NCBI GenBank assembly: GCA_045837725.1
Contig: JBEWZL010000300.1
Location: 124,001-188,000 of the forward strand
From: Vermamoeba vermiformis
Lineage: Eukaryota
DNA length: 64,000 nucleotides
Direction of reading: 5' to 3'
Part shown: one piece after another, positions 870-63,978 of the stretch
How positions within the stretch are numbered: position 1 is the first letter of the stretch
How the letters are laid out: the number at the start of each line of letters is the position of its first letter
Position numbers and translations under genes: made by a program
Notes under the pieces: model-generated
Database searches by the model: none
What the model saw: only the letters and a program-made list of their open reading frames with translations
Told to the model about the DNA's origin: nothing

Positions 870-3829
870 CATTTTATTTTTCGGGGTACTTATCAGTTAG
901 TGACATAATCTCTTCAGCACTTTTCTTTTCCTAAAATAGAAATGATCAGTACGTACTGGATCATGACAAAGATAATATGACGCGTTCAGTGAAACAATCG
1001 TTCATGAACTGCTATCCTAAATGTCAGGCACTTACCTTTGCAGCGGTTCGAACGTCATTTCGCAGATCGCAAAACTGTTGTACAATTGGTCGAGCGATAT
1101 TTTTGGTTTGTTCCGCTTGATCTTCTTCAGTGATCAGGCCGAATATTTTCAACATTTTTTCAACGTAAGATGATACTGATGTTAATAGCAATACTTTTCT
1201 ATCAGCATTGGTCAAGTAGACGTTGCTTTTGTTGATCAGATCCAGCAATGCCGTGATAACTCCGGGGGTGTCAAAATTGTCCAGTAATAGTTCATGAACC
1301 AGCCGTTGCGTCCTTCTTAATAAATCACTCAATTCTACATCCGTGGCGGTCCATTTTTGCGATTTTGATTGTTCGGATTTGTCCTACAAAAAATGTCAAA
1401 TTTTTGTGCTGACGATAAAATTGATGCAAAGATTGATTTTACCGTGGCAAGCGTATTGACTTTCGATAAAAATTCTAAGAAATATCTCTCGTTATTTCTA
1501 GCCTTATCCAAGCTGTCTTTTCGGAAATTGAACGATTTGTTCCATTGCTGCGTCAAGAACAACATTCTAATTTGAAACGGTGTAAATTCACCCAAAATCT
1601 CTTTGATCGTGATAAAATTCTTCAACGACTTTGACATCTACGAAAAGAATTACTAAATTAGGAAAGTGGTCACAAAAATTTCGATATCGTACGGACCTTT
1701 AATCCCTCAATGTTCAAGTGGCCAGTGTGCAAGAAGTAATTGACCCATTGGTGCGTGCCAAAATACGCTTCAGATTGCGCGAGCTCATTATCGTGGTGAG
1801 GGAATCTCAAGTCCTGCGCACGACGAAGGATTAGTACAATGAAACATTATAGTCAATGCAAGATAATAATATTATTGTACGGCTTACCTCGCCTCCTGAA
1901 TGAATGTCAACGGTCTTTCCTAATATGGTAGAAGCCATCGCACTGCATTCAATGTGCCAACCTAAAAGTACGTTAGGCACGTGACTAAATCACTGCAATT
2001 TATGACACGTGTCAATTGTAAGTATCCTCTTGGCTTCCACTTCCAAACTTCTGACACTTTGACACGTGTCAAATAATCTTTTTTAAACGTACCAGGTCGT
2101 CCGTAACCAAAGACGGTGTTCCAACCAGGCTCTCCGGGCTTCGATTTCTTCCACAGAGCAAAGTCGATTGGACTGCGCTTGTCGTGCTCTGGCACATCTT
2201 TCATCAAGACTCCCTGAAAAAGTGTCAGATCCGATCACTCACAGAACTTTTTTATTTGAATGGCTAACTTACTTCGCCGTCTTGATGAAGTTTTCTATTT
2301 CCGATTGACCATGGCTCTAGCTTGCCATAAAAGTGGTGGTTGTCTGGCGGGTTGGCGTGGACAAGTGACGGGTCAAACTTGCCTGTGTTGAAGTACACGG
2401 ATCCATTCGATTGATAACTTGAAGTTGAATTAAATGCTATTCTAAGTACAATATGTTTCTATACTTACGCGTATCCGTTGTCTATAATCTTTGACACCAT
2501 TTGTACGACTTCATCGATGTAATCTGAGACACGTGTCAAAACGTCAGGTGATTTGACATTAAGCACGTTCATTTCATTGAAAAAATCTGTCTCGAACTTG
2601 CTCGCGTGTTCTCGGATCTAAAAATAGCCGTTATTATTGATAAGTGTTTCATGAACGGCACGAAATTTCATTGTAACATACCGCCTCGCGCATCGTATCG
2701 CTGGATAATGAGGGTCCGTACAAGGCGTCTACATATTCTACGAGTGGATCATATGCGAATTGAACAGGATCTGGAAATGTCTTATTCAATTCTTCGATTG
2801 TTTTGGAACTAATGGCGTTTAATTTTTCCTACCCGAAGAAACGTCAAAAATCAGATCCGGCTCTTTTCGACTAGAATAAAATGTATGATGAGATTACCTT
2901 TGCAGATGATTGCTTCGTAATGGCAATATTTAAATCAGCTTCTAATTCTTTTTTGTTTATTTTGCCGGTGCTGTGTTTAATATCTTCCTGCTTGACACGA
3001 CACAAATTAATCTTTAATAACAGAAAAATTGAATAAATTTTGAATTGGAATTACCTGCAAAACACCCAATTTCTTATCCTTGTCTTTAATATAATATTCT
3101 AAGGCTTTCTTAATGTCGTTCAAGATCTCGTCGTCCCAACCCGTCTGTGACTTTCGTTTTTCAGTGAACTGTTTCATCAAATAATTTCTTCGTGCACGAA
3201 CAATAATCTTATCGTCCACATCGGTAATATTCATCACGAAAAATACTGCAGTAGAATCGATGTTAGTAAAAATATCGATTCGGACTTGACGGTTCAGCCA
3301 AAGCATTAAATTTATTTCCGCAACGGCCGTATTGTATATTAGGATGACGATTATTATAAATAAATTAATTAGAGTTCTTACCTTCATAATTAAAATAATC
3401 TTCCAAAATTCTTCGGATAATATCGAACGTGATGTAAGTCCTGGAAATAATATATCAATAAGTCATAGTAATAATCGTAAATGCGTACATTGCATGACCT
3501 AAATGAGCGGAGTCGTAAACGGTTGGCCCGCAGATGTACCATTTGACCAGACGTCCTTCTTGAGGTATAAATGGCTCAAGCTTACTCGTTAAGCTATTAT
3601 ATACTTTTAAGCCTATGATAATCGAGTATAAAACGGTTAGTAGAGAATTTCAGACCGCGGATCCAGCTCGCCACGTGCAATATTATTTCAAATTTACAAA
3701 AAATCAGAATAATTATTGAAATATCGGGCTGTATATTATATACTCACCGACATCAACTCCGCCGCTCGGTTGAACCCAGGGAGGCTGTTCTAATTTTTTC
3801 TTTGGATCAGCCGTGGTAAGGATCGACAT
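870..3829 (-). CDS. CARS1: Cysteinyl-tRNA synthetase, multi-exon; 3' end uncertain (~720-880)
   Basis: Spliced exons give [85 protein letters not shown] at 3829 ([21 protein letters not shown]). Confidence 0.95.
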
Positions 3830-4169
3830 TTGATTGCTCTGGACGATCTACCACTCGATCACTGTATAAGCAAAAAGAATGTACACTTCGCCGCGAGTTC
3901 AATCGTGGTATCTGGTCAAGTTGCGAATTTTGGAAGAACATAATGTTGGAAAAAATCTTGTAGTCACTCATTGCTCGATTCCCATGGCTCACATGGCCAG
4001 AGCCCGTCGATATGCCTCTAGCGGCTTTTCAATTTTTAATTGACCTTCTCGTTAGATCTGGGTACATTTGCTCCGACAATTTTCTCAAGGTCGCTACAGC
4101 TCTCCCAAAACTTTCGCCCTGCGCTTGAAAGAGTAGCTATTTGAACAAGGCTAGTGCAGGACGCTGATC

Positions 4170-4535
4170 GGGAGGGCGCCCAATTGCAGTGCTACTTCGC
4201 TTTGTACGAGAGGACCAGCATGCCAAGTAGTCGCATCTGGGGCATCCTGCAGCGTAGACAGCGAGACGGTGGGGTTGGTAGCACCAATCCGCTAAGAAGT
4301 GCGTAACAGCAATTACAAGGCAGACAGAGTCGCCAGTAGCGTCGGACCCGAAAAGCTATGATAGCTTAGTTTGAACCAGCTGAAGCCGTGCGGCGGATGT
4401 GGTTCATTCTCAACTTGTCGGGTATTCAGATTCGAATGACTCTGTCTGCTGAAGTGCATACTTGCCGAGTTGCAGGACTCCCCGGATGCGATAGAGCAAC
4501 TTAACCACTTGATGCGATCGCCCTCCTTATTTTTT
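4170..4535 (+). ncRNA. Putative structured non-coding RNA of unknown family (~360 nt; may extend 5' to ~4089)
   Basis: GC-rich ORF-free island with nested helices: 4171-4178/4519-4526, 4231-4242/4480-4491, 4245-4253/4469-4477, 4320-4331/4438-4449, 4346-4355/4414-4423, 4372-4378/4400-4406. G-U wobbles favour the + strand; the terminal helix is followed by TTATTTTTTG. Confidence 0.75.
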
Positions 4536-4888
4536 GCTTTTGTAGCGGCCGGATCGCGAGTACGTGTAGTCAGCGTCTATTACTAAACAAAACTATTTAT
4601 TCCGCAAAAATTCGACGCAAGATCGTTGAGAATCTTGCTAACTTGCTATTCTTTTTGTGGTAGCGGATCCCACGCCAAGAAAGTTCGGTCAAAGGCAGGC
4701 CTTGCTTTTAAAGGTTGCTTCGAAGGACGCTAGACCAAAGAATCAGTCACTAAATCTGACGAGCAAAATACAAATAAAATAGTCATAATATTATTTTATT
4801 AAATCTCAAATACAGAAATTAATAATAACAATACTATGACTGTAGACTACTGTTATATAGGCTTAATCCTTAATCAAATTAAAGGTCC

Positions 4889-7019
<2,131 letters not shown>

Positions 7020-7623: not shown

Positions 7624-9865
7624 ATGCAAACCGAAATCCTACCGATAAAAGAAGATCGAGCTAATCCTGGCCAAGGACCAACCTCGCCAGAAAAAGAAAA
7701 TAAATCCCCGAGAAAAGGCTCTGCAAAGGGTCATACTGCATTGGCAAAAAGTATGCCCGTCAAGCACAAAGCTCCAGCGGAAGATGAGTCAAATCCAAAA
7801 CAATCGCAGCGAAGCCCTATTCAAGACAGTCAAGATACAAATATTAGGAAAACAGTTATTGTAAAGAAGGAGCGAAAAAAGCAAAAGTAAGTCTTAAAGT
7901 TACTTCACGATTTTCCAAAATTATTGTCGGCCTCGAGACGCCTCTGTATGAAATTAAAGCATAGTTCCTGTATTAAAATAATACGTTTGAATTACGTCTT
8001 AATAATTGGATTTCTTCTACAGCGAGAAAGCTGCCGCTGAGGATTTCTTGAAGGGCATCAGCTTTGGCGATCCTAAGAAAGAGCTGCCGAAGAAGGTAAG
8101 CTACTTAAACTATGTATGATTGTCATGCATATGAGATTGAATCATTCGCGAATCTTTGATGCTAGATCTCCTTCTTTATTTTTGCCTAACTCGTCGCGTG
8201 CTCAGGTCAAAAAGCCTGCCGCTCCCGTACAGCCTCTTTACCAATCAGCTCATATCGAGAAAGAGGTCGTTATTCCTACAACCACACCTTTAGCAACTTC
8301 TCTAGGGCAATCGTTTGTATCCGCTCCTGCTGCTGAGGAGCTGATCGTCGAAGAGAGACCAATGCCAGTCATTGAAGAGGTGCATGATGACGAGGAGCAA
8401 CAAGCAAAGAAGAAACCTTCCACGAAGAAGAAGTTAGTAATAAAGGGAGCCAACCTGAAGAAGTACGTGGCCTTGCTGATATCGGAGTTTTGCTAACCCT
8501 TTTACAAAAATAGATACAAAAGCAAGTTGGTCAATTCTACGATGTACTTCACTTCTTCACATCAAAGCTACCCTATTGTATCGTCGCTCATCGTTACTTC
8601 CGACGCCAAGCTCGCCACACCTGCCCGAACAACTAGCTTTGAGAGGCAGTCGTTTTCACGTGAGAGGTCGTCTACACTAGAAGACATTACACGGCCACAA
8701 TTGAAGACATCGACTGCAGTAGTCAAGAAGCCATCAAAGGGCACAGCTTATGGTTATCTATTGCCTTTGTAAGCAAGCTCAGCCTCGTTAATTCTGCCAC
8801 TTCTAACTCTGCTTCAGGCACGAGGAATACAACCCGCACTTGTTGGACAACTCCTTTGTATTGCCTGGCAAACAGCGAATGGTTATTAACCTGCCTGGAT
8901 TCAGGGTAAGCGCAAGTAACACCGTTCATCGGTTACCGAACTGGCGGGACCAGAAAAAAGTTGAAACGGCGTTCAACAATCCGACATGGTGTAGGGGTTC
9001 AGCATATCCGCCTGTCACGCGGGTGACCCGGGTTCGATTCCCGGTGTTGGAGATTTCTTTTTTACTTTTTGGATTTTCCTTCGCTCACGCCTCTCTGCCT
9101 CCCGCTACGCTCTTCGAACGAATAGCGTTGCATTTTTTTTTCTTCACGCATCCATTCGACGGTTGACTGACCTTCTCTTTCAGGAATCGTTTTTCCCGTT
9201 TGTTAAGGCTGCACATCTCGAAGAAGAGTTGGACAGCGAGTTTAAAGAGAAGCACCCTTGGCTCAAGACAAACATCACTCTCAACGATATACGGAAGATG
9301 AAGAGAAGGTTGTTTGAAGTGTCCCTCAGCGTTGTAAGTACTCAGCCTCACGTGCCCTCTGAAAGTCCCACTAATGTTATCTAATCTTTAGTCACTCGAT
9401 GTTAGCACTACAGCGCTGTCGTACGTCTATTTTGAGCGCTTAATCGTTAAGGTACCTTAGCGTGCTTTTTGCAAATCATCTATTCGTATTTTGACTCAAC
9501 TAACGTCCGGTTAGAATCTCGTTACGAAGAACAATATGAAGTCTTATGCAGCAGCTTGCCTACTCCTAGCGGCCAAATTCAACAATCCAAGAGAGTTCGC
9601 TAAGCGGGTGTTTGAAGCTATCGACCGGACGTTTGTGCCTGCACGCGATGTTACGAGCGTCGAGTTTATTGTTTACAAAGATCTGGCGTTCAAGTTAATG
9701 GCGGATATGTCAGATGTCGAGCCGCACTTACAGCAGCTACAGGCTAGTCAAGATTATCAAGATCACTTGTTCGAGTACCAAGCGAGAAGAAGGAAAGGAT
9801 CCGTGCGAGATAGTATTTATGGCGAGTTACCTAATACAGGCAAACAAGCCGCAAACTCACAGTAG
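7624..9865 (+). CDS. CABLES-like cyclin-box protein, multi-exon
   Basis: Low-complexity N-terminus, then [79 protein letters not shown], which matches the recalled CABLES C-terminal cyclin fold. Confidence 0.8.
8980..9052 (+). tRNA. trnD: tRNA-Asp(GUC), inside an intron of the CABLES-like gene
   Basis: Cloverleaf TCCGACA...TGTTGGAG, anticodon loop CTGTCAC, GGTTCGATTCC T-arm, downstream T-run terminator. Confidence 0.97.
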
Positions 9866-13986: not shown

Positions 13987-15616
13987 TTACATTATAATGT
14001 TAAGAAGCATCGCTGCAACAACGGTGACTGCACCCAACAGTTGTGCTGCATCGCTCGCCTTCGAAGAGGTGGGAGTCTTAGTTGGAGCAGCAATCATGTT
14101 GCAAGTATAGCCATCGCCTTCATAGCCTGCGTTACATGCGCAGTCCGCGTAGCCAGGGTAAGAAGTGCACTTGGCATTGGAGTCACATGGATTGAGATCC
14201 GTTTGACAGATGTCAACGGAGAACGCAAACGTATCGCGGTGTTGGTCAGGCGAGATATAATCAAACGTGCCACGAACGATCCATAGACTGCCCATAGATT
14301 GACCTGCAAGGTCACCACGTGTTCCAGGGTAATTACTTGCATCAGCTTGATGAAATTTACCGTACTGAGGGGGTGTTATGGCACTATCGTTGAGAGTGCC
14401 CGAGATGAACTTCCATTCGTTGGATGTCATGTTGAAGGTGAACAAGAGATCGGAGTAGAAGACAGTAGGGACATTGGTCCAGCCACACCAGTACAAAAAA
14501 ATATTATTGCCAACGTATGCCATCGTGCCTGCAAGAGAGGCAGGAGGTTGAACTTGACCTTCAGTAAGCGTGGCATTTTGATTGGTACCGTTGCCGCTGA
14601 CCCACATCCATTGCAATGTCGATGGTCTGAAGCGCCATAGTTCGTTGCTCAAAGCATACCCAGGAAGATTACCACCATGGAACCTAAGAATAAAACCGGA
14701 TCAGGATCGACCTAATTTTTTGAGGTACGAATAGAGTTTATTAACAAATAAAAGTAGCTCGGTACTTACCAGACATCACCAGTAAGATCTATTGCGAAAT
14801 TAGCGGCCCAAGCTGGAGGACAGGTGACTTGATCGTCTGAGTACCAGGTGCCTTGTGCAATGCCGTCAGTACGAGGAACGTTTACTTCCTTGGTACCGGC
14901 GATCCAAGTCCACACGCCACTAGCGATACTATACTTCCATACATCACTGCGCCACTTGATGTTGGAACCAGCAAGGATCCAAAGCTCGTTGGATTTGAAA
15001 TCCGTCCAAGTAACCGCTCCAGAATTTTCACCGGGAAAAGTAACGTTATATTCACCAGCACCTTTAGTACCCCATTCGGCTGGCATTGGTTCGTGAATGA
15101 GTTTCCATTGACGAGAGCTGGTGTTGAACATCCAGAGATCCGTAAAGTAAGTGATCCAATAATCGTTAGTGCCGCCAGTCATCCATAAATTGTCGTCGCG
15201 ATCTACCCAAATGAGGGAGTTTTTGCGAGAAGGAGGTCTGTAGTCAGGTCCTTCCATGCCACGTTGTGGAGGGTAATTTCCTGTATCGTTGGTCGGCCAA
15301 CTTTGAATTTCAGACCAAGTGTAGTTATTTCTAACATCGAGTTTCCAAACATGATTGTAGTGAGCGGATTCATAGTCTTTTAAAATTAATTAATAAAATT
15401 TAAATTTGGCCGTTACAAAATAATAATCGGTTCTAGCATACCGTATTTGCTACCACCAAAGAGCCAAATATTGCCTTTCGAGTCTTGAACTTGAGCTTGA
15501 TATGCAAGATCAGGCATAGCACCGTTTGGACCTTCGATCCAAGTGGCCAAGTATTCAGAGCCTGCTACCAAAGTAGCGAAAAGAAGAAATAGAGGTATAA
15601 TCACTTTGGTGGTCAT
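13987..15616 (-). CDS. Secreted Kelch/galactose-oxidase-like beta-propeller + EGF-like protein with GPI-type tail, copy A (3 exons)
   Basis: Signal peptide MTTKVIIPLFLLFATLVAG; repeats D..GN.WLFGG / W.Y......WTW..G; CQTDLNPCDSNAKC...CACNAGYEGDGYTC; hydrophobic C-terminus. Confidence 0.85.
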
Positions 15617-15658
15617 TTTTAGTTGCGCAGCAAAGAATGATTCAGTTTTGGGAATAAA

Positions 15659-17621
15659 CTGTTCAACGGTTGGATGCCAAAAAAAGCAATCTCAAACACG
15701 GGAGATTGCGCGGGCAAAGTTTTAAATTAGTGTTCACGATAGTTAACATCAAAGGACAAATGGTTGAAATTTATGCTTGTAATAACGTACAACTTTACTT
15801 GGCTGATCAAATAAGGCTGATCATTACGGCAATAATGGTAACGAATGCACCCAACAGACGTGCTGCGTCGCTCGCCTTCGCAGAGGTGGGAGTCTTAGTT
15901 GGAACAGGAATCATGTTGCAAGTATAGCCATCACCTTCATAGCCTGCGTTACATGCGCAGTCCGCGTACCCGATGCGAGCAGTGCACTTGGCGTTTGAAC
16001 CACAGGGATTGAGATCAGTTTGACAGATGTTGACTGAGAACACAAACGTGTCGCGATGTTGGTCAGGCGAGACATAATCAAACGTGCCACGAACAATCCA
16101 TAGACTGCCCATAGATTGACCTGCAATGTCGCCACGAGTTCCAGGGTAATTGCTTGCATCAGCTTGATGAAATTTACCGTACTGAGGGGGCGTTATGGCA
16201 CTTTCGTTGAGAGTGCCCGAGATAAACTGCCATTCGTTGGATGTCATGTTGAAGGCGAACAAGAGATCCATGTAGTTGCTAGGATTTACATTGGTCCAGC
16301 CACACCAGTACAGAAGAATATTGTTGCCAACGTATGCCATCGTGCCTGCAAGAGAGGCAGGAGGTTGAACTTGACCTTCGGTCACTGAGGTACTTTGACC
16401 GGTGCCGTTGCCGCTGACCCACATCCACTGCAGTGTCGATGGTCTGAAGCGCCACAGCTCATTGCTGATGTAAAAACCGGGAATATTGCCACCGTGGAAC
16501 CTGTGCCATATTTAGGGTCAGATCAAGGCCAACAGTACACACTCGGAAGCAATACGCGCATAAGTTGCACTTACCATACATCGCCACTGCGGTCAATTGC
16601 ACCAGAGGGTGCCCAAACTGGAGGACGGTTGACTTGATCATCGGAGTACCAGACACCTTTTTGTACGTTATCATAGCTACGAGGAACGTCTACTTCCTTG
16701 GGTCCAGCCATCCAAGTCCACACGCCACTAGCGATATTATACTTCCAAACGTCACTGCGCCACTTTGCGTTGCCACCAGACAGGAACCAAAGCTCGTTGG
16801 ATTCGAAATCCGTCCATGTAACGGCTCCGGAAATATCGCCGGGAAAAGTAACGTTATATTCACCAGCACCTTTAGTACCCCATTCGGCTGGCATTGGTTC
16901 GTGAATGAGTTTCCATTGACGAGAGCTGGTGTTGAACATCCAGAGATCCGTAATGTAAGTGATCCAATAATCGTTAGTGCCGCCAGTCATCCATAAATTG
17001 TCATCGCGATCGACCCAAATGAGCGAATTTTTGCGAGAAGGAGGTCTGTAGTCAGGTCCTTCCATGCCGCGTTGTGGAGGATAATTTCCTGTGTCGTTGG
17101 TCGGCCAACTTTGAATTTCAGACCAAGTGTAGTTATTTCTAACATCGAGTTTCCAAACGTGGTTGTAGTGAGCGGATACGTAGTCTTAAAATTTTATATT
17201 TAAAATAAACATTTGGCCGTTACAAAATTATTTTTGGTTCTAGCCTACCGTATTTGCTACCGCCAAAGAGCCAAATATTGCCTTTAGAGTCTTGAACTTG
17301 AGCTTGATTTGCAAGATCAGGCATAGCACCGTTTGGACCTTCGATCCAAGTCGCCAAGTATTCTGATCCTGCTACCAAAGTAGCGAAAAGAAGAAATAGG
17401 GGTATAACCGCTTTGATGGTCATATTTAGTTGCGCGACAAACAAGTAATTCAGTTTTCGGCAACAAACCTGTTCAACGGTTGGATGCCAAAAAAAGCAAT
17501 CTCAAACACGGGAGATTGCGCGGGCAAAGTTTGAGTTTTAAGTTCAACGACAGTTAGCATCAAAGGACAAATCATATAATGCTTGAAATTTATGCTTGTA
17601 ATAACGAACAACTTTGGCTGA
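15659..17621. repeat. Near-identical intergenic spacers of the tandem array (about 15659-15806 and 17468-17621)
   Basis: Shared CTGTTCAACGGTTGGATGCCAAAAAAAGCAATCTCAAACACGGGAGATTGCGCGGGCAAAGTTT...GAAATTTATGCTTGTAATAACG. Confidence 0.9.
15807..17423 (-). CDS. Kelch-like propeller + EGF-like GPI-type protein, copy B
   Basis: Tandem paralog with the same exon structure as copy A. Confidence 0.85.
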
Positions 17622-19299
17622 TCAAATAAGGCTGATCATTACCGCCATAACGCTCGCGATTGTGAATGCACCCAGCAGTTGTGCTGCATCGCTCGTTTGC
17701 GAAGACGAAGGGGAGGAAGAAGAGGCAGGAGTCCTAGAGTCATTTGGAGCATTTGGCGAAGCAACTACGTTGCAAGTATAACCATCACCTTGATAGCCTG
17801 CGTTACATGCGCAATCCGCGTAGCCAGGGTAAGAAGTGCACTTGGCGTTTGAATCGCAGGGATTGAGATCAGTTTGACAGATGTCAACTGAGAACACAAA
17901 AGTGTCGCGGTGTTGATCAGGCGTGTACCAATCAAACGAGCCACGAACGATCCACAGACTGCCCATTGAGATTGAACTGAACTCGCCACGTGTTCCAGGG
18001 TAATTACTTGCATCAGCTTGATGAAATTTGCCGTACTGCGGGGGCATGTAAGTTTCGTTGAGAGTGCCCGAGATAAACTTCCATTCGTTGGATGTCATGT
18101 TGAAGGTGAACAAATTGTCTGAGTACCAGTTTGCTTGGTAGGAGTAGCCGGGCCAGTACAAAAGAATGCCGTTTCCCACATAGGCCATCGTACCTGAGTC
18201 AGCGCCCGCGGGCTGAACATGACCTTCCGCGAGATTGATATGTTGGTTCGTACCGTTGCCACTGACCCACATCCATTGCAATGTTGAAGGTTTGAAGCGC
18301 CATAGTTCGTTGCTTAAAGGATACCCAGGAAGATTACCACCGTGGAACCTAAGAATAAAACCGGATCAGGATCGACTATTTTTTGAGGTACGAATAGAGT
18401 ATATTTAACAAATAATAGTAGCTCGGTACTTACCAGATATCGCCAGTAGGATCTACAGCGAAATTAGCGGCCCAAACTGGAGGACAATTGACTTGATCCT
18501 CTGAGTACCAGGTGCCTTGTGCAATGCCGTCAGTACCAGGGACATTAGGCTCTTTAGGTCCAGCCATCCAAGTCCACACACCACTAGCAATATTATACTT
18601 CCATACGTCGCTACGCCATAGTAGATTGCCACCAGCAATGGACCAAAGCTCGTTGGATTTGAAATCCGTCCAAGTTACCGCTCCGTTGTTTTCGCCGGGG
18701 AATGTCACGTTATATTCACCAACGCCTTTGGTACCCCATTCGGCTGGTATTGATTCATGAATGAGTTTCCATTGAAGAGACGTAGTGTTGAACATCCAGA
18801 AATCCGATTGGAAGTCCAGCCAGTTGTTCGAGGCACCGCCGTAAATCCAAAGATTATCTTCTTTGTCCATCCAGGTCAATGCGGCGTAGCGCGCTGATGG
18901 TCTGTAGTCAGGTCCTTCCATCCCACGTTGCGACGGGTATTTTCCGGTGTCGTTCACTGGCCAGGTTTGAATTGCTGACCAAGTGTAGTTATTTCTAACA
19001 TCGAGTTTCCAAACATGATTGTATTGTTCAGATACGTAATCTGTATAGTTAATTGATTAGTTTTTGGTAAATGGATGGCGCTGCCGGTGTGCACTTGTAA
19101 ACGGAAAACGAAGGTTTAACTTACCGTTTTTGCAGCCGCCAAAGAGCCAAATATTGCCTTTCGAGTCTTGAATCTGCGATTGAAAAGCTAGATCTGGCAT
19201 TTCGCCGTTTGGCCCCTCGATCCAGGTGGCCAAATAATCGGATCCTGCGGCCAGAGCAACGTAGAGCAACCATACTGATACGACAACCTTTGTGTTCAT
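17622..19299 (-). CDS. Kelch-like propeller + EGF-like GPI-type protein, copy C (most diverged 5' half)
   Basis: Tandem paralog with the same exon structure. Confidence 0.85.
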
Positions 19300-20119
19300 A
19301 ATGTGAGTAAAAGTGATTAATTAAATGACGTTGAAGCATTTGAATTTATCGTTGTCGGCGGTATGTCCTCACAATGTCAAACTAAAAATAGAGAATTTAA
19401 CGACAATCTTAAAAAATGATTAAATTATACTCTGGCATACCGGTCGTATGATTCCTGCTTAGTATTATCTTCGTGTATGATCATAATACATCGAAGGACG
19501 TTTGTGCTGAGTCGATCTGGCGCTGTGGAGGAGTCTTGAGATCTTCAAGATCCTTGATTTCTATCCTCTCAGTGTCAAGTGCCATCGCCATACTCTCGTA
19601 TCTTATGTTCTGCGATTCGGGAATTGTTTAGTGGGACGCTCGTGACAGACAAGCTGAGATCAGAAAAATTATTTCTGTTGTCTCTTATTCGTATCACAGC
19701 ACAATAGATGTAATTTTCTCGTGGACTTTTGGTTGGTGTAATAACTAATTTTCGGAGTCTCTCTCAGCATTTTATTGAAGATGCGCATCTGCCAAATTGG
19801 TTCCAAAGTGGCCTAAAAATATGTAAATATTTTTTAAAAATTATAAATATGCTATTAATATTAATCAACTATAAGGAAAAGCCAAATTACTTGTTCAAAA
19901 AATTGCTACTCACTTTTGGGCTTGAGCACTTCGGATTTCCGTTCTGTTTCAACACTAAGCACTGATTTACAAGCAATAGCTATGTTGCAACCTTCACATT
20001 TTCACTGCTATTATGAATGAGCTCGCCAAATATACAGTTTTCAGCCTGCCAAATTAGTAATGCGGAGAAAGCGGTACAAAAGTACGCTGCGTTGGATTAT
20101 TTTTATTATATTTATGAAT

Positions 20120-32044: not shown

Positions 32045-35000
32045 TTAAACGTTGCGGAACTTGGGCTCGCATCTGTTCGGAATTTTAGCGATCAGAGAAT
32101 CCGGCAAGAAGTCAGCTTCAAACTGCGCGCCTTGACGGAACACATTGAGGCCTTCGATGCCTTCAGACCACGTCTTGTTCGGTCCAGCAATGACGATGAC
32201 AATGTAGTAAGTGATCGCTTCTTGCGTCCACTTTTCCTCGGGGTTCTTGTACGTCAAGCAGCCGTACGCCTTGCCCCATTTAGCAGGGATCTTCGTCTTG
32301 ACCATCACGTCGCGGAACTTGTCGTACTCGAGGATTTCTTTGGCTTCGACGCGGACCTGCCAGTCTTCTTCGAGCTTGCACCAGAGCATGTGTTCGCGGT
32401 GAGATCTGAAGTAAGCGTGGAGTTCTTTCAACGGCACGGGCTCAGCGTGGTTCTCACCAAACGTGTCAGGCATCTTGGCGCCAGCAGGAACTTCGATGTC
32501 GAACGAACCCTCGGCCAAGGGGTAAGATGTCAAAGTGTCAATGTTGGTCGGGCCGTCTCGGCGGTTTTGATGCGTGACAAATTGGTCAAAGATGTTGTAA
32601 TGGAGCGACATTTCGACCTTGTGAGTGCCAGCACCAGCGCGAAGGAGGTAGCCGTAGAGCAGTCTGGGCATCAAGTCCCAGCCAGTGTAGAACGATTCAG
32701 GGGTCATGGGCAAGCCAAGAATCTCAAAACCAACGGTCTGTTGCGTGTAGTACATGTTGTTGTTGCCGTGGAAGTATCCGAAGCTGTCTTGGAACGCGTA
32801 CTTTCTGTGCACGGGCTTGCCGTCAATCTTGAGCTGCAGCGACATGATCAACGAAGGCGCGAGGTAGTTCTTGTCCATCAGACCGTCGACGGGGTACACA
32901 GGAGTGCCGTCCTTCTTCTTGCCAATAGCGTAGTTGGCGATCGATCGAGGCCAAACAGCGCGTGCAAAGATCGGATCCGTCAAGCTGAACTTGGTCTTCA
33001 AGGCGTCCTTGTTCTTGATTTGAGGCTGGATAGTCTCGTTGGCAAAGACGATTTTGCCGGCAAGAGGCAAAGTGTACTCAGCGAGAATAGCGTCCTTCGT
33101 GCTATCAGGTCTGTTGGCGAAAGGAAGACCGCTTTGAGCAGGGGTGCCAGGACGAACCATCTCGTAGTCAGGAATGCCGACGTCTTCTTCAGAAGGCTGC
33201 CACAAGTCAGTGGGAGCAGAGGGCGTGGGCCATTCAGGCTCGAACTCGGGCTTCCAATTCTCCATCGAGTAGCGGAAGTAGCTGTTCCAAATCTTCTGCA
33301 AACGGCGGATAGCTGCACGGTGCGCAACAGGCCACTTCTCGAGCTGTTTAAGACCGCTGACAATGTGCTCTTGCTTGTGAATAGGCACCTTGCTGTCGAC
33401 TTTCTGAACCATGCCTTCAATGATCTCAAGAATCATGACCACCTTGCCCAAGTGCATTTGTTCCTTGATCAACTTGTCAATCTTTTCTTGGAACGGCGGG
33501 ATGTAGGGGAACTTCACGTTGAGCGAGTGCCATTCAGAAGCGACTTCATCGACGAAACCCAAGATGTTGTCGCGCATGGGTCGCTCTGCCTCGTGTGCAA
33601 TGCGGTGGTGCAAAAGACTGGCCTTAGACAAGACACCAACAAATTGCGAGACCACTTCGTTGCGTTTGTCGTTCTCTTCGATCTGAGCACGAGCTGTCTT
33701 AAGTTGTTCGAGCATGGTGTTCTTCAGATCATCAGCCGGCAGCTCGTTGACTTGCTTCTCCATCTTCTCAACCAAAGAAAGAGTGTGGGCCCACTTGCCG
33801 TAGATGTACGAAGGAGCGTTGTAGCCGCCCGTGTTAGTCGAAGTGGGCACAACTTCAGCGACCTTGGCCACGCGAATCAACTCGTTGACAGACTTCTTCC
33901 ACTCGCCGTTGATCGTCAAGATGTTAGTGTTCCATTGAATGACGAAACTGCGGGTCTGGGCAGGGGTGGAGGACTGGGCTTGAACGTTGGACAACGGGGA
34001 GTTCATGTGAATAACCCAAGGACCAAGCGTGGATTGAATAGGACCGCTGGGGAAGCCAGGAGCATTGGGAACTAATAAGAAATGTTGAATTAGAATCGGA
34101 TTCGAAAGCTATAATTGACGTGGATAATTACCTGACGACTTGACAACAGGAGTAAGAGGTGTCTCATCAGCGCTGGACTCAGCACCGGCAGCAGCTTTAC
34201 TGCCCATGGCAGCAGTGATCGTGCTCTCAAGGGTTGTAAGAGCAGCGCGAGTCTCGGTCACGTAGGTCTTGACGAGGGGCAAAGTGTTGTAAGGCGGGTT
34301 CTCGAGCTCGGAGAGGCTTTCGTAGGCCTTGGTCAAAGCGTCCAAAGCCTCTTGGTGGCGCGAGTGTTCGGCCAGGTTCTTAGCGTTGGTGACGTGAGTC
34401 TTGCCAGCATAAACCTTGTCGTAGACGACTCTGCCGAACATAGCTTCACCGACCTTAGCTTCCAAGCTATCAAGGGTGGGGTTGGTCTCCTTCAAGAAGG
34501 CGATGGTGGCCGGGAGATTGTTGTAAGGAGATTCGTCGAGTTCAGCAATGGCCTCGCGGGTCTTGGCGATGGCGGTAAGAGCCTCGCTGTTACGGCTGTG
34601 GAAGTGCAAGTCGTTGGCGGTGGTCAAGTGGGTCTTGGCAGCACGGATCTTGTCTTCAACGACTCTGCCAAACAAGACTTCACCGATCTTGCCTTCGAGG
34701 GTGTCAAGAGCGGGCTTGGCGTCCTTCAAGTAGGCAACAGTAATGTCGAGAGTGCCAAAAGGAGGTTGTTCAAGCTCGGCAAAAGCGTCTCTGGCCTTGG
34801 CAACAGCAGTAAGAGCCTCTTCGTTTCTGGAATGGAAGTGCATGCTTTCAGCTTCAGTGACAAGTGTCTTGGCAGCACGGATCTTGTCGTCAGCAACACG
34901 ACCGAACATGGCTTCACCGCATTGACGCTCGTATTGATCAATTTGCTTCTCGAACTCGGGCAAGAATTCTTGAGTGGCCTTCAAGCTGCCATAAGGAGCC

Positions 35001-37936
35001 TCCTTCAACTCGGAGATGAGCTCGCGGGCCTTGGCAACAGCGTCGAGGGACTCTTGGTATCTGTTGTGGAAGTGCATGTCCTTGGCAGTAGTTCCAAAGG
35101 TCTTGGCAGCACGGATCTTCTCGTCAACGACTTTGCTGAAGAGAGCTTCACCGCATTGGCGTTCGTACTCGTCAATTTGCTTCTCAAACTCGGGCAAGAA
35201 CTCTTGAGTGGCCTTCAAGCTGCCGTAGGGAGTTTCCTTGAGTTCAGCGATGAGCTCGCGGGCCTTGGCGACGGCGTCAAGTGACTCTTGGTGGCGGCTG
35301 TGGAAGTGCATGTCCTTGGCAGTGGTTCCAAAGGTCTTAGCGGCACGGATCTTCTCGTCGACAACTCTGCTGAAGAGAGCTTCACCGCATTGGCGTTCGT
35401 ATTCATCAACTTGCTTGATGAACTCGGGAAGGAAGCCAGAAACGGCCTCCAAAGAGCTCCAAGGGGCTTCTTGCAATTCAGAGATGCTTTCGCGGGCCTT
35501 GGCAACAGCGTCGAGGGCCTCTTGGTAGCGGCTGTGATAGTGCATGTCCTTGGCAGTAGTTCCGTGAGTCTTGGCAGCGCGAATCTTGTCATCAGCAAGA
35601 CGGGAGAACATTTCTTCACCGCACTTGGTTTCGATGTCGTCGATTTGCTTGGCGAATTCGTTGAGGAAGGTCTTGACAACGTCCAAGGTGACGTAAGGGG
35701 GTTGAGCAAGCTCGCTCATCTGTTCGCGAGCCTTGGCGACAGCTTCAAGTGCCTCGTCGTAACGGTTGTGGAAGTGCATGTCCTTGGCCTTGGTGCCATG
35801 GCTCTTGGCCTCGCGGATCTTGTCGTCAGCAAGGCGAGAGAACATAGCCTCACCGCACTGCTTCTCGTACTCGTCGATTTGTTTCTCGAAGGCAGGCAAG
35901 AACTCTTGAGTGGCTTTCATGTTGCCATAAGGAGCGTCCTTCAACTCGGCGATGAGTTCGCGGGCCTTGGCAACAGCTTCAAGAGCTTCTTGGTATCTGT
36001 TGTGATAGTGCATGTCCTTGGCAGTAGTTCCAAAGGTCTTGGCAGCACGAATCTTCTCGTCGACAACTCTTCCGAACATTTCTTCACCGCACTTGGCTTC
36101 GATATCAGTAATGTTCTTTTCGAACTCGGGCAAGAACTCGAGAACGCTCTGGAAGGTAGCGTAGGGAGGGTTGGACAGCTCAGCGATGAGCTCGCGGGCC
36201 TTAGCAACGGCGTCGAGTGATTCTTGGTATCTGTTGTGATAGTGCATGTCCTTGGCAGTGGTTCCAAAGGTCTTGGCTTCACGGATCTTGTCGTCGACCA
36301 AACGGCTGTACATGGCTTCACCGCATTGACGTTCATAGTCATCAATTTGCTTAGTGAATGCGGGCAAGAACTCAGCAACAGCAGGGAAAGTGTTGAACGG
36401 AGCATTGGACAACTCGGCGATACTTTCACGGGCCTTGGCAACTGCTTCAAGAGCTTCTTGGTAACGGCTGTGATAGTGCATGTCCTTGGCCTTGGTACCA
36501 TGTGACTTGGCCTCGCGGATCTTGTCATCGACAAGGCGACCGTACATTTCCTCACCACACTTCTTCTCGATGTCGTCGATTTGAGTGATGAAGGCCGGCA
36601 AGAACTCTGTGACCGCCTTGAAAGCGCTGAAGGTAGATTGAAGCTCGGCAATAGATTCACGGGCCTTGGAAACAGCGTCGAGGGATTCTTGGTATCTGTT
36701 GTGGAAGTGCATGTCCTTGGCCTTGGTACCGTGGCTCTTGGCTTCGCGGATCTTCTCGTCAACGACGCGACCCAACATGGCTTCACCGCAAAGTCGTTCG
36801 TACTCGTCGATCTGCTTGATGAATTCAGGCAAGAAGGCGGTGACGGCAGGGAAAGTGTTGAACGGAGCGGCAGACAGTTCGTTGATGCTGTCACGAGCCT
36901 TGGCAACGGCGTCAAGTGACTCTTGATATCTGTTGTGATAGTGCATGTCCTTGGCCTTGGTGCCGTGAGACTTGGCCTCGCGGATCTTGTCGTCAACAAT
37001 ACGACCGTACATAGATTCGCCACACTTCTTCTCGATATCGTCGATTTGGGCAATGAAGGCAGGCAAGAACTCGACAACGGTCTTGAAAGCTCCAAAAGTG
37101 GATTGAAGTTCGGCGATGCTTTCACGGGCCTTGGCTACAGCGTCGAGCGACTCTTGATATCTGTTGTGGAAGTGCATGTCCTTGGCCTTGGTGCCGTGGC
37201 TCTTGGCTTCACGGACTTTTTCGTCGACCACTTTACCAAGCATGGCCTCGCCAACCTTGGCTTCAATGTCGTCGATTTGCTTAATGAAGTCGGGGAGGAA
37301 GGCAGTGACTGACGAGTGAGTGTTGTACGGGGCTTCGGAGAGCAAGGCAATGCTTTCGCGGGCCTTGGTAACAGCGTCGAGCGACTCTTGGTATCTGTTG
37401 TGGAAGTGCATGTCCTTGGCCTTAGTACCGTGGCTCTTGGCTTCACGGACCTTATCATCAACGACGCGACCCATCATAGAGTCAGAAATCTTCTTCTCGA
37501 GAGTGTCGATCTGCGCGCGGGATTCGTTGAGGAATGTTTTTACTGCTTCGGCGAAGTTGTATGGAGCGATATCCAAGGCAATCAAACCGGCGCGGGCCTT
37601 TTCCAATGATTCGGAAGCTTCAGCGTATCGGTTATGGAAGTGCATTTGAGTGGCGTTGGCGAGCGGAGTTTTGACGTTGGAATACAAGCCATCCAAAACT
37701 TTCTTGACGAAGGCGCTAGCATCAGCTTCGAGCTTCTTGATTTCATTCTTTGCGGAAGTGACGAATTGTTGAGTCTTGGCAAAGGTAGCAGGAACAATCT
37801 TCATCAGACTTTCCTTTTCAAAAGCAACAACCGCATCTCGAAGTTTAATGACTTCTTCGAGCTGTGAGTTGGCCTCTTCGAAGCTTTTATATTCACGCTT
37901 TTTGAGCGAAGCAAGCAATCCTTCAAGAGCTTCCAT
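32045..37936 (-). CDS. ~1,940-aa protein: 15 tandem 76-78-aa helical repeats + globular C-terminal region; intron 34072-34130
   Basis: ORFs 34109-37936 and 32045-34006 join in frame (VKSS-VPNAPGFP...VIHMNSP) across a GT-AG intron; strong codon bias. Confidence 0.9.
34230..37700 (-). repeat. Coding tandem repeat, 15 units of ~228-234 nt
   Basis: Unit consensus VVDEKIREAKSHGTKAKDMHFHNRYQESLDAVAKARESIAEL..APY.T..AV.EFLPEF.KQIDEYERQCGEAMFGR. Confidence 0.95.
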
Positions 37937-63518: not shown

Positions 63519-63601
63519 TCCGACCTGCCGGAATCGAACCAGCGACCTAAGGATTGATGCTTCACTACAGTCCTCCGCTCTACCGACTGAGCTAAGGTCG
63601 G
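63519..63601 (-). tRNA. trnY: tRNA-Tyr(GUA) with a ~10-nt tRNA intron
   Basis: CCGACCTTAGCTCAGTCGGTAGAGCGGAGGACTGTAG[TGAAGCATCA]ATCCTTAGGTCGCTGGTTCGATTCCGGCAGGTCGGA, then a T-run. Confidence 0.97.
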
Positions 63602-63905: not shown

Positions 63906-63978
63906 CTCCAACACCGGGAATCGAACCCGGGTCACCCGCGTGACAGGCGGATATGCTGAACCCCTACACCATGTCGGA
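63906..63978 (-). tRNA. trnD: tRNA-Asp(GUC), identical to the copy at 8980-9052
   Basis: Exact reverse complement of 8980-9052; T-run terminator. Confidence 0.97.

Follow-up and report, generated by a model that had tools for sequence, protein, structure and literature searches.

A discrete gene in Vermamoeba vermiformis encodes a ~360-nt RNA predicted to join a sarcin-ricin loop hairpin to a ribosomal stalk-base arm

We analysed a 64-kb stretch of Vermamoeba vermiformis DNA (contig JBEWZL010000300.1, positions 124,001 to 188,000 of the forward strand), here called the window, whose numbering is used throughout. An earlier note, made from the letters alone, had proposed a new or very diverged noncoding RNA (ncRNA) between the CysRS and IDH genes of this window. 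Positions 4170-4535 (+ strand) are a gene for a ~360-nt RNA, which runs from about G4170 into a T-run and is delimited by a block of conservation with an orthologous locus and by RNA reads and contigs. Judged by sequence and predicted fold, this RNA is a chimeric copy of two functional sites of large-subunit (LSU) rRNA, mounted on a scaffold of its own, and not a fragment of rRNA. The two sites are helix 95's sarcin-ricin loop (SRL) and the stalk base formed by helices 42-44. The SRL and the GTPase centre at the stalk base are the two rRNA elements touched by every translational GTPase, and many potent ribosome toxins recognise them too, as does the stress kinase GCN2. The earlier proposal thus stands as far as a discrete, structured and conserved + strand gene with a promoter box and RNA data is concerned; it had missed the rRNA content.

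The SRL is carried by a helix-95-like hairpin of 39 nt (4192-4230, + strand) with a basal stem at 4192-4197/4225-4230. Its core, GTACGAGAGGACC at 4204-4216, includes a GAGA tetraloop (4208-4211), in which A4209 presumably corresponds to the base attacked by ricin and Shiga toxin. The 13 nt of the core are identical to E. coli 23S rRNA, and the arm agrees with it at 21 of 28 positions (blastn-short, E 0.026 against a 5.9-kb E. coli locus); the SRL also ends in GGACC, as in E. coli. Both the universal sequence and the GAGA-tetraloop hairpin that define the motif were found, with 12 of the 14 positions matching the universal SRL 14-mer given in the accessible text of PMC4574749. The arm is 100% identical in the orthologous locus described below. 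Reads of the RNA show snap-back joints at 4192/4231 and 4198/4225, at the predicted hairpins, as expected from stable structure in the RNA template. An Rfam search of the SRL arm alone (4165-4245) gave no meaningful match.

The stalk-base arm was recognised by covariance model. In a cmscan search of 4000-4750 with lax filters, positions 1071-1165 of LSU_rRNA_bacteria, which are helices 42-44 or the GTPase-associated centre, aligned to 4240-4481 with 27.7 bits (E 1.7e-6). This falls short of the gathering score, 50, and takes in only that part of the 2925 model positions. Helices 42-44 are the binding site of the stalk proteins uL10/P0 and uL11. In the window, all on the + strand, the helix-42-like stalk has its 5′ strand at 4231-4265, with a conserved internal loop (TAGACAGC, 4255-4262), and its 3′ strand at 4457-4491, as placed by the cmscan alignment and the consensus fold; its helices are 4231-4242/4480-4491, 4245-4253/4469-4477 and 4261-4265/4461-4465. 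It leads to a helix-43-like hairpin (4267-4291) with a 9-nt loop at 4275-4283 and to a helix-44-like hairpin (4296-4313) with the hexaloop GTAACA at 4303-4308. The succession of a 3-bp stem, two unpaired positions, a second 3-bp stem and a 9-nt loop in helix 43 is that of the Rfam eukaryotic consensus. Stem and loop lengths in both hairpins equal those of the eukaryotic consensus and of E. coli. Helix 42, its internal loop and the two hairpins thus reproduce the architecture of the GTPase-associated centre, with an extra arm that makes the junction four-way.

Two comparators were used for this arm, a eukaryotic LSU fragment found in an E. coli assembly (L006) and a true E. coli 23S rRNA (L007). 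Over 4240-4320 the RNA is identical to the former at 47 of 63 positions and to the latter at 41 of 60, with zero indels in helices 43 and 44 relative to either. The bacterial model scores best within the LSU clan, yet the helix 43-44 stretch follows the eukaryotic consensus. The helix-44 loop reads GTAACA in the window and GTAATA in the orthologous locus, in E. coli and in a diverged strain known from RNA reads (X21, 4307 C>T), and in the helix-43 loop the window has G as its third base where X21 and E. coli have A. Such variation within the rRNA-like loops resembles that between domains of life. The L006 fragment is itself an oddity: this 165-nt piece of NZ_CP081009.1 (2447-2611) is annotated as a too-short 23S but is eukaryotic LSU rRNA (RF02543, 246.6 bits), and, surrounded by numerous truncated pseudogenes, it has the look of foreign or mis-assembled DNA. 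It was the only match in a blastn search of E. coli genomes (28 Gb), in which real E. coli 23S fell short of E 10.

The two elements do not stand as they do in rRNA. The SRL core (4204-4216) lies 38 nt upstream of the helix-42 internal loop (4255-4262), which reverses the rRNA order; in E. coli the SRL (4155 in the locus used) comes second, ~1,560 nt after the stalk base (~2500-2600). Neither the native order nor the native spacing of LSU elements was found, nor was a match at gathering score over a multi-domain LSU model. The end of the SRL hairpin at 4230 directly abuts the start of the stalk at 4231, and both are enclosed by a closing stem. The likeness to LSU rRNA helices 42-44 and 95 (RF02541, RF02543) therefore extends to the sequence and secondary structure of both elements, but those helices belong to the rDNA unit, whereas the present RNA is a stand-alone 360-nt gene between protein-coding genes with its own stem and an extra arm. 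An LSU rRNA gene was rejected as an identification on three grounds: the score is below gathering, a single sub-domain is matched and the element order is wrong. By counting, the stalk arm has ~26 bp before the junction, and the SRL arm consists of the motif and ~9 bp. With the arms side by side, the tip of the SRL would come to rest some way below the helix-43/44 head, qualitatively as on the ribosome. There, the SRL and the helix-43/44 sites flank the bound GTPase.

The rRNA-type elements have been kept under strict constraint. A pattern scan of metagenomes returned four loci. Three (L001, L002 and L004) are chance matches inside a protein-coding gene; the fourth, on a 6.35-kb metagenome contig (L003), is a syntenic orthologue with the IDH exons, the RNA and the CysRS exons. 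The search for a homologue suggested in the earlier note thus succeeded, and the RNA block is conserved above its flanks. Counted in alignment columns, identity reaches 140/143 over 4170-4312 (the 5′ strand of the closing stem, the SRL and helices 42-44), 65/71 over the returning strand and closing stem (4458-4528) and 113/146 over the extra arm (4313-4457). In the flanks it falls to 80/260 (3860-4069) and 52/105 (4070-4169) upstream and 73/169 (4536-4700) downstream, that is, to 31-50%, against 98% for the rRNA-like part. In an IDH exon of the same two loci, codon positions 1, 2 and 3 are identical at 62/65, 63/65 and 48/65. Even the replacement sites of this housekeeping enzyme are thus under looser constraint than the rRNA-like part with its 140/143, and the extra arm changes about as fast as silent sites do. 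These comparisons show strong purifying selection on the rRNA-type elements.

The scaffold is a closing stem, P1, whose 5′ strand (4170-4191, +) pairs with the 3′ strand (4506-4527, +) through 9 + 6 + 3 bp (4170-4178/4519-4527, 4183-4188/4513-4518 and 4189-4191/4506-4508). Not one of these 18 pairs differs between the window and L003. A 14-nt linker (4492-4505, +), unpaired in both the minimum free energy (MFE) fold and the consensus and identical at 10 of 14 positions in L003, leads from the stalk to P1. The + strand of 4170-4535 folds with an MFE of -142.8 kcal/mol (z = -4.87), and none of 100 dinucleotide shuffles was as stable; the z-score proposed in the earlier note as a check thus came out as expected in the window and weaker, at -2.30, in L003. 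The minus strand reaches -136.5 (z = -4.70), so folding energy alone gives no strand, because the minus strand folds almost as well.

A consensus structure was derived with RNAalifold from two full sequences, the window and L003. The nested long-range helices previously described are present both in the sequence and in this consensus, which contains the 4170-4178/4519-4527, 4231-4242/4480-4491 and 4245-4253/4469-4477 helices already mentioned, and 4346-4351/4418-4423 and 4372-4378/4400-4406. The 12-bp helix 4320-4331/4438-4449 is split by RNAalifold into 6+7. Side hairpins at 4192-4230, 4268-4293 and 4353-4367 were likewise recovered. The proposed 10-bp helix ACCCGAAAAG/CTTGTCGGGT survives in part: nine of its ten pairs form, and it competes with the 4353-4367 hairpin. 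The extra arm (4314-4456, +) takes up ~140 nt after helix 44 and before the returning strand of helix 42, has no rRNA counterpart and was scored by cmscan as a 149-nt insertion; searched alone against Rfam (4305-4465), it gave no meaningful match. Its fold is predicted with less certainty, as the MFE structure of L003 differs there. Within this arm, CTTGTCGGGTA at 4414-4424 equals 11 nt of E. coli 23S (~position 1942-1952, E 0.41). L003 has the same 11 nt, and none of the X21 differences considered here falls in them. The identity is probably due to chance; otherwise a third rRNA element may have been copied in the extra arm. A GTAGCG likeness near 4414-4424 is not kept in L003 and is probably also fortuitous.

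Changes between the sequences largely preserve pairing. Relative to L003, both sides of a pair have changed at 4323/4446 (G-C to C-G), 4328/4441 (A-U to U-G) and 4339/4433 (G-C to A-U), and these three double compensatory changes all lie in the extra arm. Nine further pairs differ on one side, all through wobbles that remain paired, and three of them are in the helix-42 stalk. G.U pairs, noted earlier as a sign that RNA structure is under selection, number ten in both sequences with ten more in one; on the opposite strand they would be A.C mismatches. X21 is a set of RNA reads that has the same species label but comes from a diverged strain. Among its differences considered here (12 more lie outside this set), fixed double changes occur at 4249/4473 (G-C to A-U, in the helix-42 stalk), 4323/4446 and 4328/4441, and wobble-compatible single changes at 4470, 4348, 4431 and 4433.

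The gene lies in an island with a GC content of 0.52-0.55 (4101-4500) set in intergenic DNA of 0.29-0.46, and no open reading frame (ORF) of at least 60 aa with a start codon overlaps 3993-5524. The earlier description of an ORF-free, GC-rich island between CysRS and IDH agrees with these data and with the neighbours: the N-terminal exon of CysRS is at 3455-3649 and the exons of NADP-IDH extend from ~5030 to ~7100, both on the minus strand. Reads confirm a 63-nt GT..AG intron in IDH on the minus strand, and the locus is therefore nuclear DNA with spliceosomal introns. The RNA gene is apparently single-copy within the window. Its conservation block with L003 begins exactly at 4170 and ends at the T-run.

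A predicted promoter box of the Dictyostelium upstream sequence element (DUSE) type, TCCCAAAA at 4103-4110 (+), lies 60-67 nt before the RNA start. It is an exact match to [AT]CCCA[AT]AA with its last base at -60 from G4170, and it is kept at -61 in L003 despite diverged, indel-bearing sequence between box and start. Taken alone, the motif is no commoner in the window than chance predicts (14 occurrences of the slightly wider WCCCAHAA, against 12.2 expected); it is position and conservation, and not the motif by itself, that point to a promoter element. Downstream, a T6 run of the Pol III terminator type (4530-4535, +) follows the terminal helix, as first noticed, with T-runs of 10 and 11 in the corresponding place of L003. 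The alternative suggestion of an Sm-like site in AUUUUUUG finds no support, as L003 has T-runs only there. The gene is probably transcribed by Pol III, and the + strand is assigned to it because the rRNA motifs are in sense orientation and the T-run and upstream box fit that strand.

The box, its distance and the T-run are shared with the DUSE-driven ncRNA genes of dictyostelids (small nuclear RNAs, or snRNAs, and Class I RNAs). Class I RNAs are 42-65 nt long with one short stem. They have no structural or sequence likeness to the ~360-nt RNA, and no Rfam search matched them to it. The available text of PMC3188802 gives them as 50 to 60 bp and places the element [AT]CCCA[AT]AA ~63 bp upstream of many Dictyostelium ncRNA genes. 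In the part of PMC7919456 at hand, the element is found ~60 nt upstream in all dictyostelid groups, at Pol II and Pol III ncRNA genes. Seven more exact [AT]CCCA[AT]AA boxes were seen in the window, at 1590, 6329, 11483, 15646, 46438, 54285 and 59115. A second conserved element, the 27-nt box AAGTTGCGAATTTTGGAAGAACATAAT at 3918-3944, differs at three positions from L003 (~2505-2535, minus) in otherwise unalignable intergenic DNA. It is located ~250 nt upstream of the RNA gene, directly ahead of CysRS, which is divergent, and may be a promoter element of CysRS or one that is shared.

The block is present in existing RNA data. Of 24 listed sequencing runs, 20 hold part of 3900-4800, and four were mapped (X21, X12, X5 and X4). 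Outside these four, the runs among X6-X20 with small word shares suggest no more than a recurrence of the conserved part, and habitat or range is not read from them. Summed X21 depth is ~40-190 over 4161-4517, 0 over 3600-4160 and ~2-7 over 4518-4720, with ~10-25 on the IDH exons; the peak at 4263-4313 may include true rRNA reads. From X12, a 326-nt contig aligns end to end on 4179-4504 with 6 differences (depth 23.9). The X5 metatranscriptome yielded contigs on 4226-4445, 4325-4445 and 4416-4520, none reaching beyond the block. A fourth X5 contig (depth 193) shares only 4257-4310 with the block, with 8 differences there, and continues into unrelated sequence; we read it as some eukaryote's true LSU rRNA. 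The 237-nt contig from X4, with 0 differences, is probably DNA. Reads and contigs also span 4314-4517, the stretch without rRNA likeness. The transcript expected by the earlier note is thus matched in these data by reads and short contigs confined to the block. Together the data give good support to a discrete RNA limited to about 4170-4528, but not to its exact ends.

These data also bear on the possibility that the locus is a non-functional, chimeric rRNA pseudogene, produced by a template switch or an organellar insertion, with the reads coming from true rRNA or from read-through. The presence of rRNA-like sequence, the depth at 4263-4313 that could partly be cross-mapping rRNA and the overlap of the rRNA-like depth-193 contig with 4257-4310 are all compatible with it. 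Neutral evolution and colinearity with rRNA, however, were not found. The locus has a syntenic orthologue whose rRNA-like part is 98% identical, compared with 31-50% for the flanks and 48/65 for third codon positions; compensatory changes have occurred, and the box at its fixed distance and the terminator have both been kept. Moreover, reads and contigs cover the non-rRNA-like 4314-4517, and the element order is rearranged. The conservation pattern already contradicts a pseudogene, which we consider hardly credible.

Searches of known families yielded no established class. Rfam models run on the whole window placed no family at gathering score on 4170-4535. With lax filters over 4000-4750, 4165-4245 and 4305-4465, models of signal recognition particle (SRP) RNA, RNase P, RNase MRP, U3, snRNAs, 7SK, telomerase, vault and Y RNAs gave nothing at E <=10, and the other matches were at chance level (E 4.7-7.7). 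The Rfam check that had been called for therefore left the sub-threshold LSU match of 27.7 bits as its yield, and, as this is no rRNA gene, that match leaves its novelty unaffected. The absence of the hallmarks of SRP, RNase P/MRP, U3 and snRNAs, first noted by eye, agrees with the covariance models. A very diverged SRP, RNase P/MRP, telomerase, U3 or 7SK RNA with a coincidental rRNA likeness would fit the ~360-nt size, the upstream ncRNA box and the T-run, which are common to several classes. Yet no such model reached E <=10 in 4000-4750 or its sub-parts, and the likeness is too specific for chance, because a match of E 1.7e-6 is accompanied by an exact 13-mer SRL 38 nt away. This reading is highly improbable. 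Telomerase RNA, considered separately, was rejected for want of a convincing template and because it leaves the rRNA content unexplained.

Analogues were sought outside eukaryotes by exact pattern. Viral contigs gave 0 matches to the rRNA-type stalk-base pattern and 0 to the pattern of an SRL followed by a stalk base; in prokaryote genomes the latter pattern had 1 match, a chance one in a transposase-like ORF without an Rfam family. By exact-pattern search only, then, no prokaryotic or viral analogue was found. In a full-text literature search, with subscription-only articles and supplements outside its reach, no natural ncRNA was found in which these elements are joined or the factor-binding site is imitated. 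Conceptually the present RNA can be compared with 6S RNA, an open-promoter mimic, and tmRNA, a mimic of tRNA plus mRNA. They too are small stable RNAs imitating a nucleic-acid ligand of a large machine, but their targets differ and they bear no sequence or structure relation to the ~360-nt RNA.

Several observations weigh against a conserved RNA mimic of the ribosomal sites. At position 1 of the SRL 14-mer the window has U instead of A, and the MFE structure pairs the SRL stretch differently, nearest-neighbour folding being without the non-canonical pairs of the bulged-G/S-turn fold. The LSU match, whose score is below gathering, appeared only when a short region was searched; whole-window runs were without it. 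Over its whole length the L003 RNA has a z-score at which 1 of 100 shuffles was as stable, and its MFE folds the extra arm differently. All 110 consensus pairs (110/110) are standard in both sequences, but this follows by construction, the structure having been derived from the same two. The shuffle control is weak, as 50 of 500 shuffles reach the observed covariation values, and the statistics are weak because only two full sequences are available. Some pairs are broken (4325/4444, C.A in L003; 4322/4447, C.A in X21), the 4375/4403 pair is kept in neither L003 nor X21, and the tip of the extra arm (4357-4391) is replaced by other sequence in X21. The edges of X21 coverage alone set no transcript ends, because diverged flanks would not map at 85% identity, and the library is unstranded, with both mate orientations, and so carries no strand information. 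Finally, mimicry leaves the extra arm without an explanation.

As to function, we lean on balance towards an off-ribosome mimic of the factor-docking site of the large subunit, a decoy, sponge or scaffold, a role suggested by the sequence. A separate nuclear gene would give a ~360-nt RNA that folds on its own. Its helix 42-44 arm would be loaded with uL10/P0 (and with the stalk proteins P1/P2) and uL11, as on rRNA, and the neighbouring hairpin would present the SRL away from the ribosome. Such a particle could compete with 60S subunits for ligands of the SRL/stalk-base site. Candidate ligands would be ribotoxins or ribosome-inactivating proteins that dock on the stalk and attack the SRL, translational GTPases, and a GCN2-type kinase. 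According to the accessible text of PMC12012509, Gcn2's HisRS-like domain makes contact with H43 in the stalk base and with the SRL. In what is available of PMC8941211, ricin A chain acts on the SRL and its recruitment is proposed, the title naming ribosomal P-stalk proteins.

Three narrower forms of this mimicry can be envisaged, the third of which, stalk-protein handling, is also a rival in its own right. In the first, the RNA would be a toxin bait of innate defence: P-stalk proteins on the helix 42-44 arm would recruit stalk-docking, SRL-attacking toxins to a sacrificial SRL and so spare the ribosomes of the amoeba. The toxins might be N-glycosidases or ribotoxin RNases from prey bacteria, fungi or plants. 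An alarm signal, too, might arise from damage to the bait. This specific role is tentative and, taken by itself, rather unlikely. In the second, the RNA would act as a sponge or regulator of GTPases or of a GCN2-type kinase, a proposal which we hold to be just as doubtful.

The RNA might instead serve the stalk proteins themselves, storing, pre-assembling or feedback-titrating uL10/P0-P1/P2 and uL11, in which case the SRL would be no bait. The site for uL10 and uL11, helices 42-44, is indeed the largest and best-matching rRNA-like part. Bacterial ribosomal-protein leaders, which act by mimicking rRNA, would be an analogue, since they are non-ribosomal RNAs that copy the rRNA binding site of a stalk-base protein; the L10 leader is presumably RF00557. 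In the accessible text of PMC7247131 such leaders are a form of ribosomal regulation. They are, however, short cis-acting leaders of bacterial mRNAs, whereas the present RNA is a trans-encoded eukaryotic ncRNA bounded by promoter and terminator and equipped with an SRL. Neither L10_leader nor any other ribosomal-protein leader model matched in 4000-4750, and the neighbours are CysRS and IDH, so that a cis arrangement was not found either. A role in stalk-protein handling would also leave unexplained a complete SRL hairpin that is 100% identical in L003, and we regard it as unlikely.

Another way to account for strict conservation is that the RNA is a ribosome part supplied in trans, to a cytosolic or mitochondrial LSU rRNA without helices 42-44 and 95, and separate from it in the manner of 5S or 5.8S. 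Conservation of the elements comes close to that of real rRNA (140/143), and some traits look bacterial or organellar: the best LSU model is bacterial, the SRL has the GGACC end, and there is the 11-nt identity to E. coli (E 0.41). The hairpin, however, abuts the stalk without a linker and the RNA has its own 18-bp stem, features of a self-contained fold and not of a two-domain plug-in. The helix 43-44 stretch follows the eukaryotic cytosolic consensus and not the bacterial one, and the RNA is GC-rich, unlike typical mitochondrial rRNA. The gene also looks single-copy in the window, and the literature on fragmented mitochondrial rnl in Amoebozoa gave no pointer in the texts that could be searched. 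A part supplied in trans is therefore improbable.

If the off-ribosome mimic is borne out, it would represent a minimal factor-binding site made by the cell, and a new category among the few ncRNAs that work by molecular mimicry. It would offer a genetic handle on whether cells use look-alikes of the ribosome to buffer toxins, factors or stalk proteins, on the minimal RNA context that the SRL and stalk base need, and on how translation is protected in protists that graze on toxin-producing microbes.

Other features were observed elsewhere in the window. A 653-aa ORF searched against the Protein Atlas scored 0.82 or less, and only to bacterial hypothetical clusters, which is uninformative. Two identical tRNA-Asp(GTC) genes, at 8980-9052 (+) and 63906-63978 (-), lie 55 kb apart in opposite orientation, and a tRNA-Thr(AGT) gene at 63519-63601 (-) has an intron-like 13-nt insertion in its anticodon loop. 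Three tandem copies of a gene pair or exon set occupy 13987-19320 at a spacing of ~1.81-1.86 kb and with 63-95% identity; in their products an EGF-like Cys-rich module comes after Kelch-like repeats, and the C-terminal tail is hydrophobic. Inside an ORF of 1275 aa (34109-37936, minus), a tandem array at 34310-37545 consists of 11-14 copies of a 234-nt unit with 60-80% identity, encoding repeated 78-aa modules of the type '...REAKSHGTKAKDMHFHNRYQESLDAV...'.

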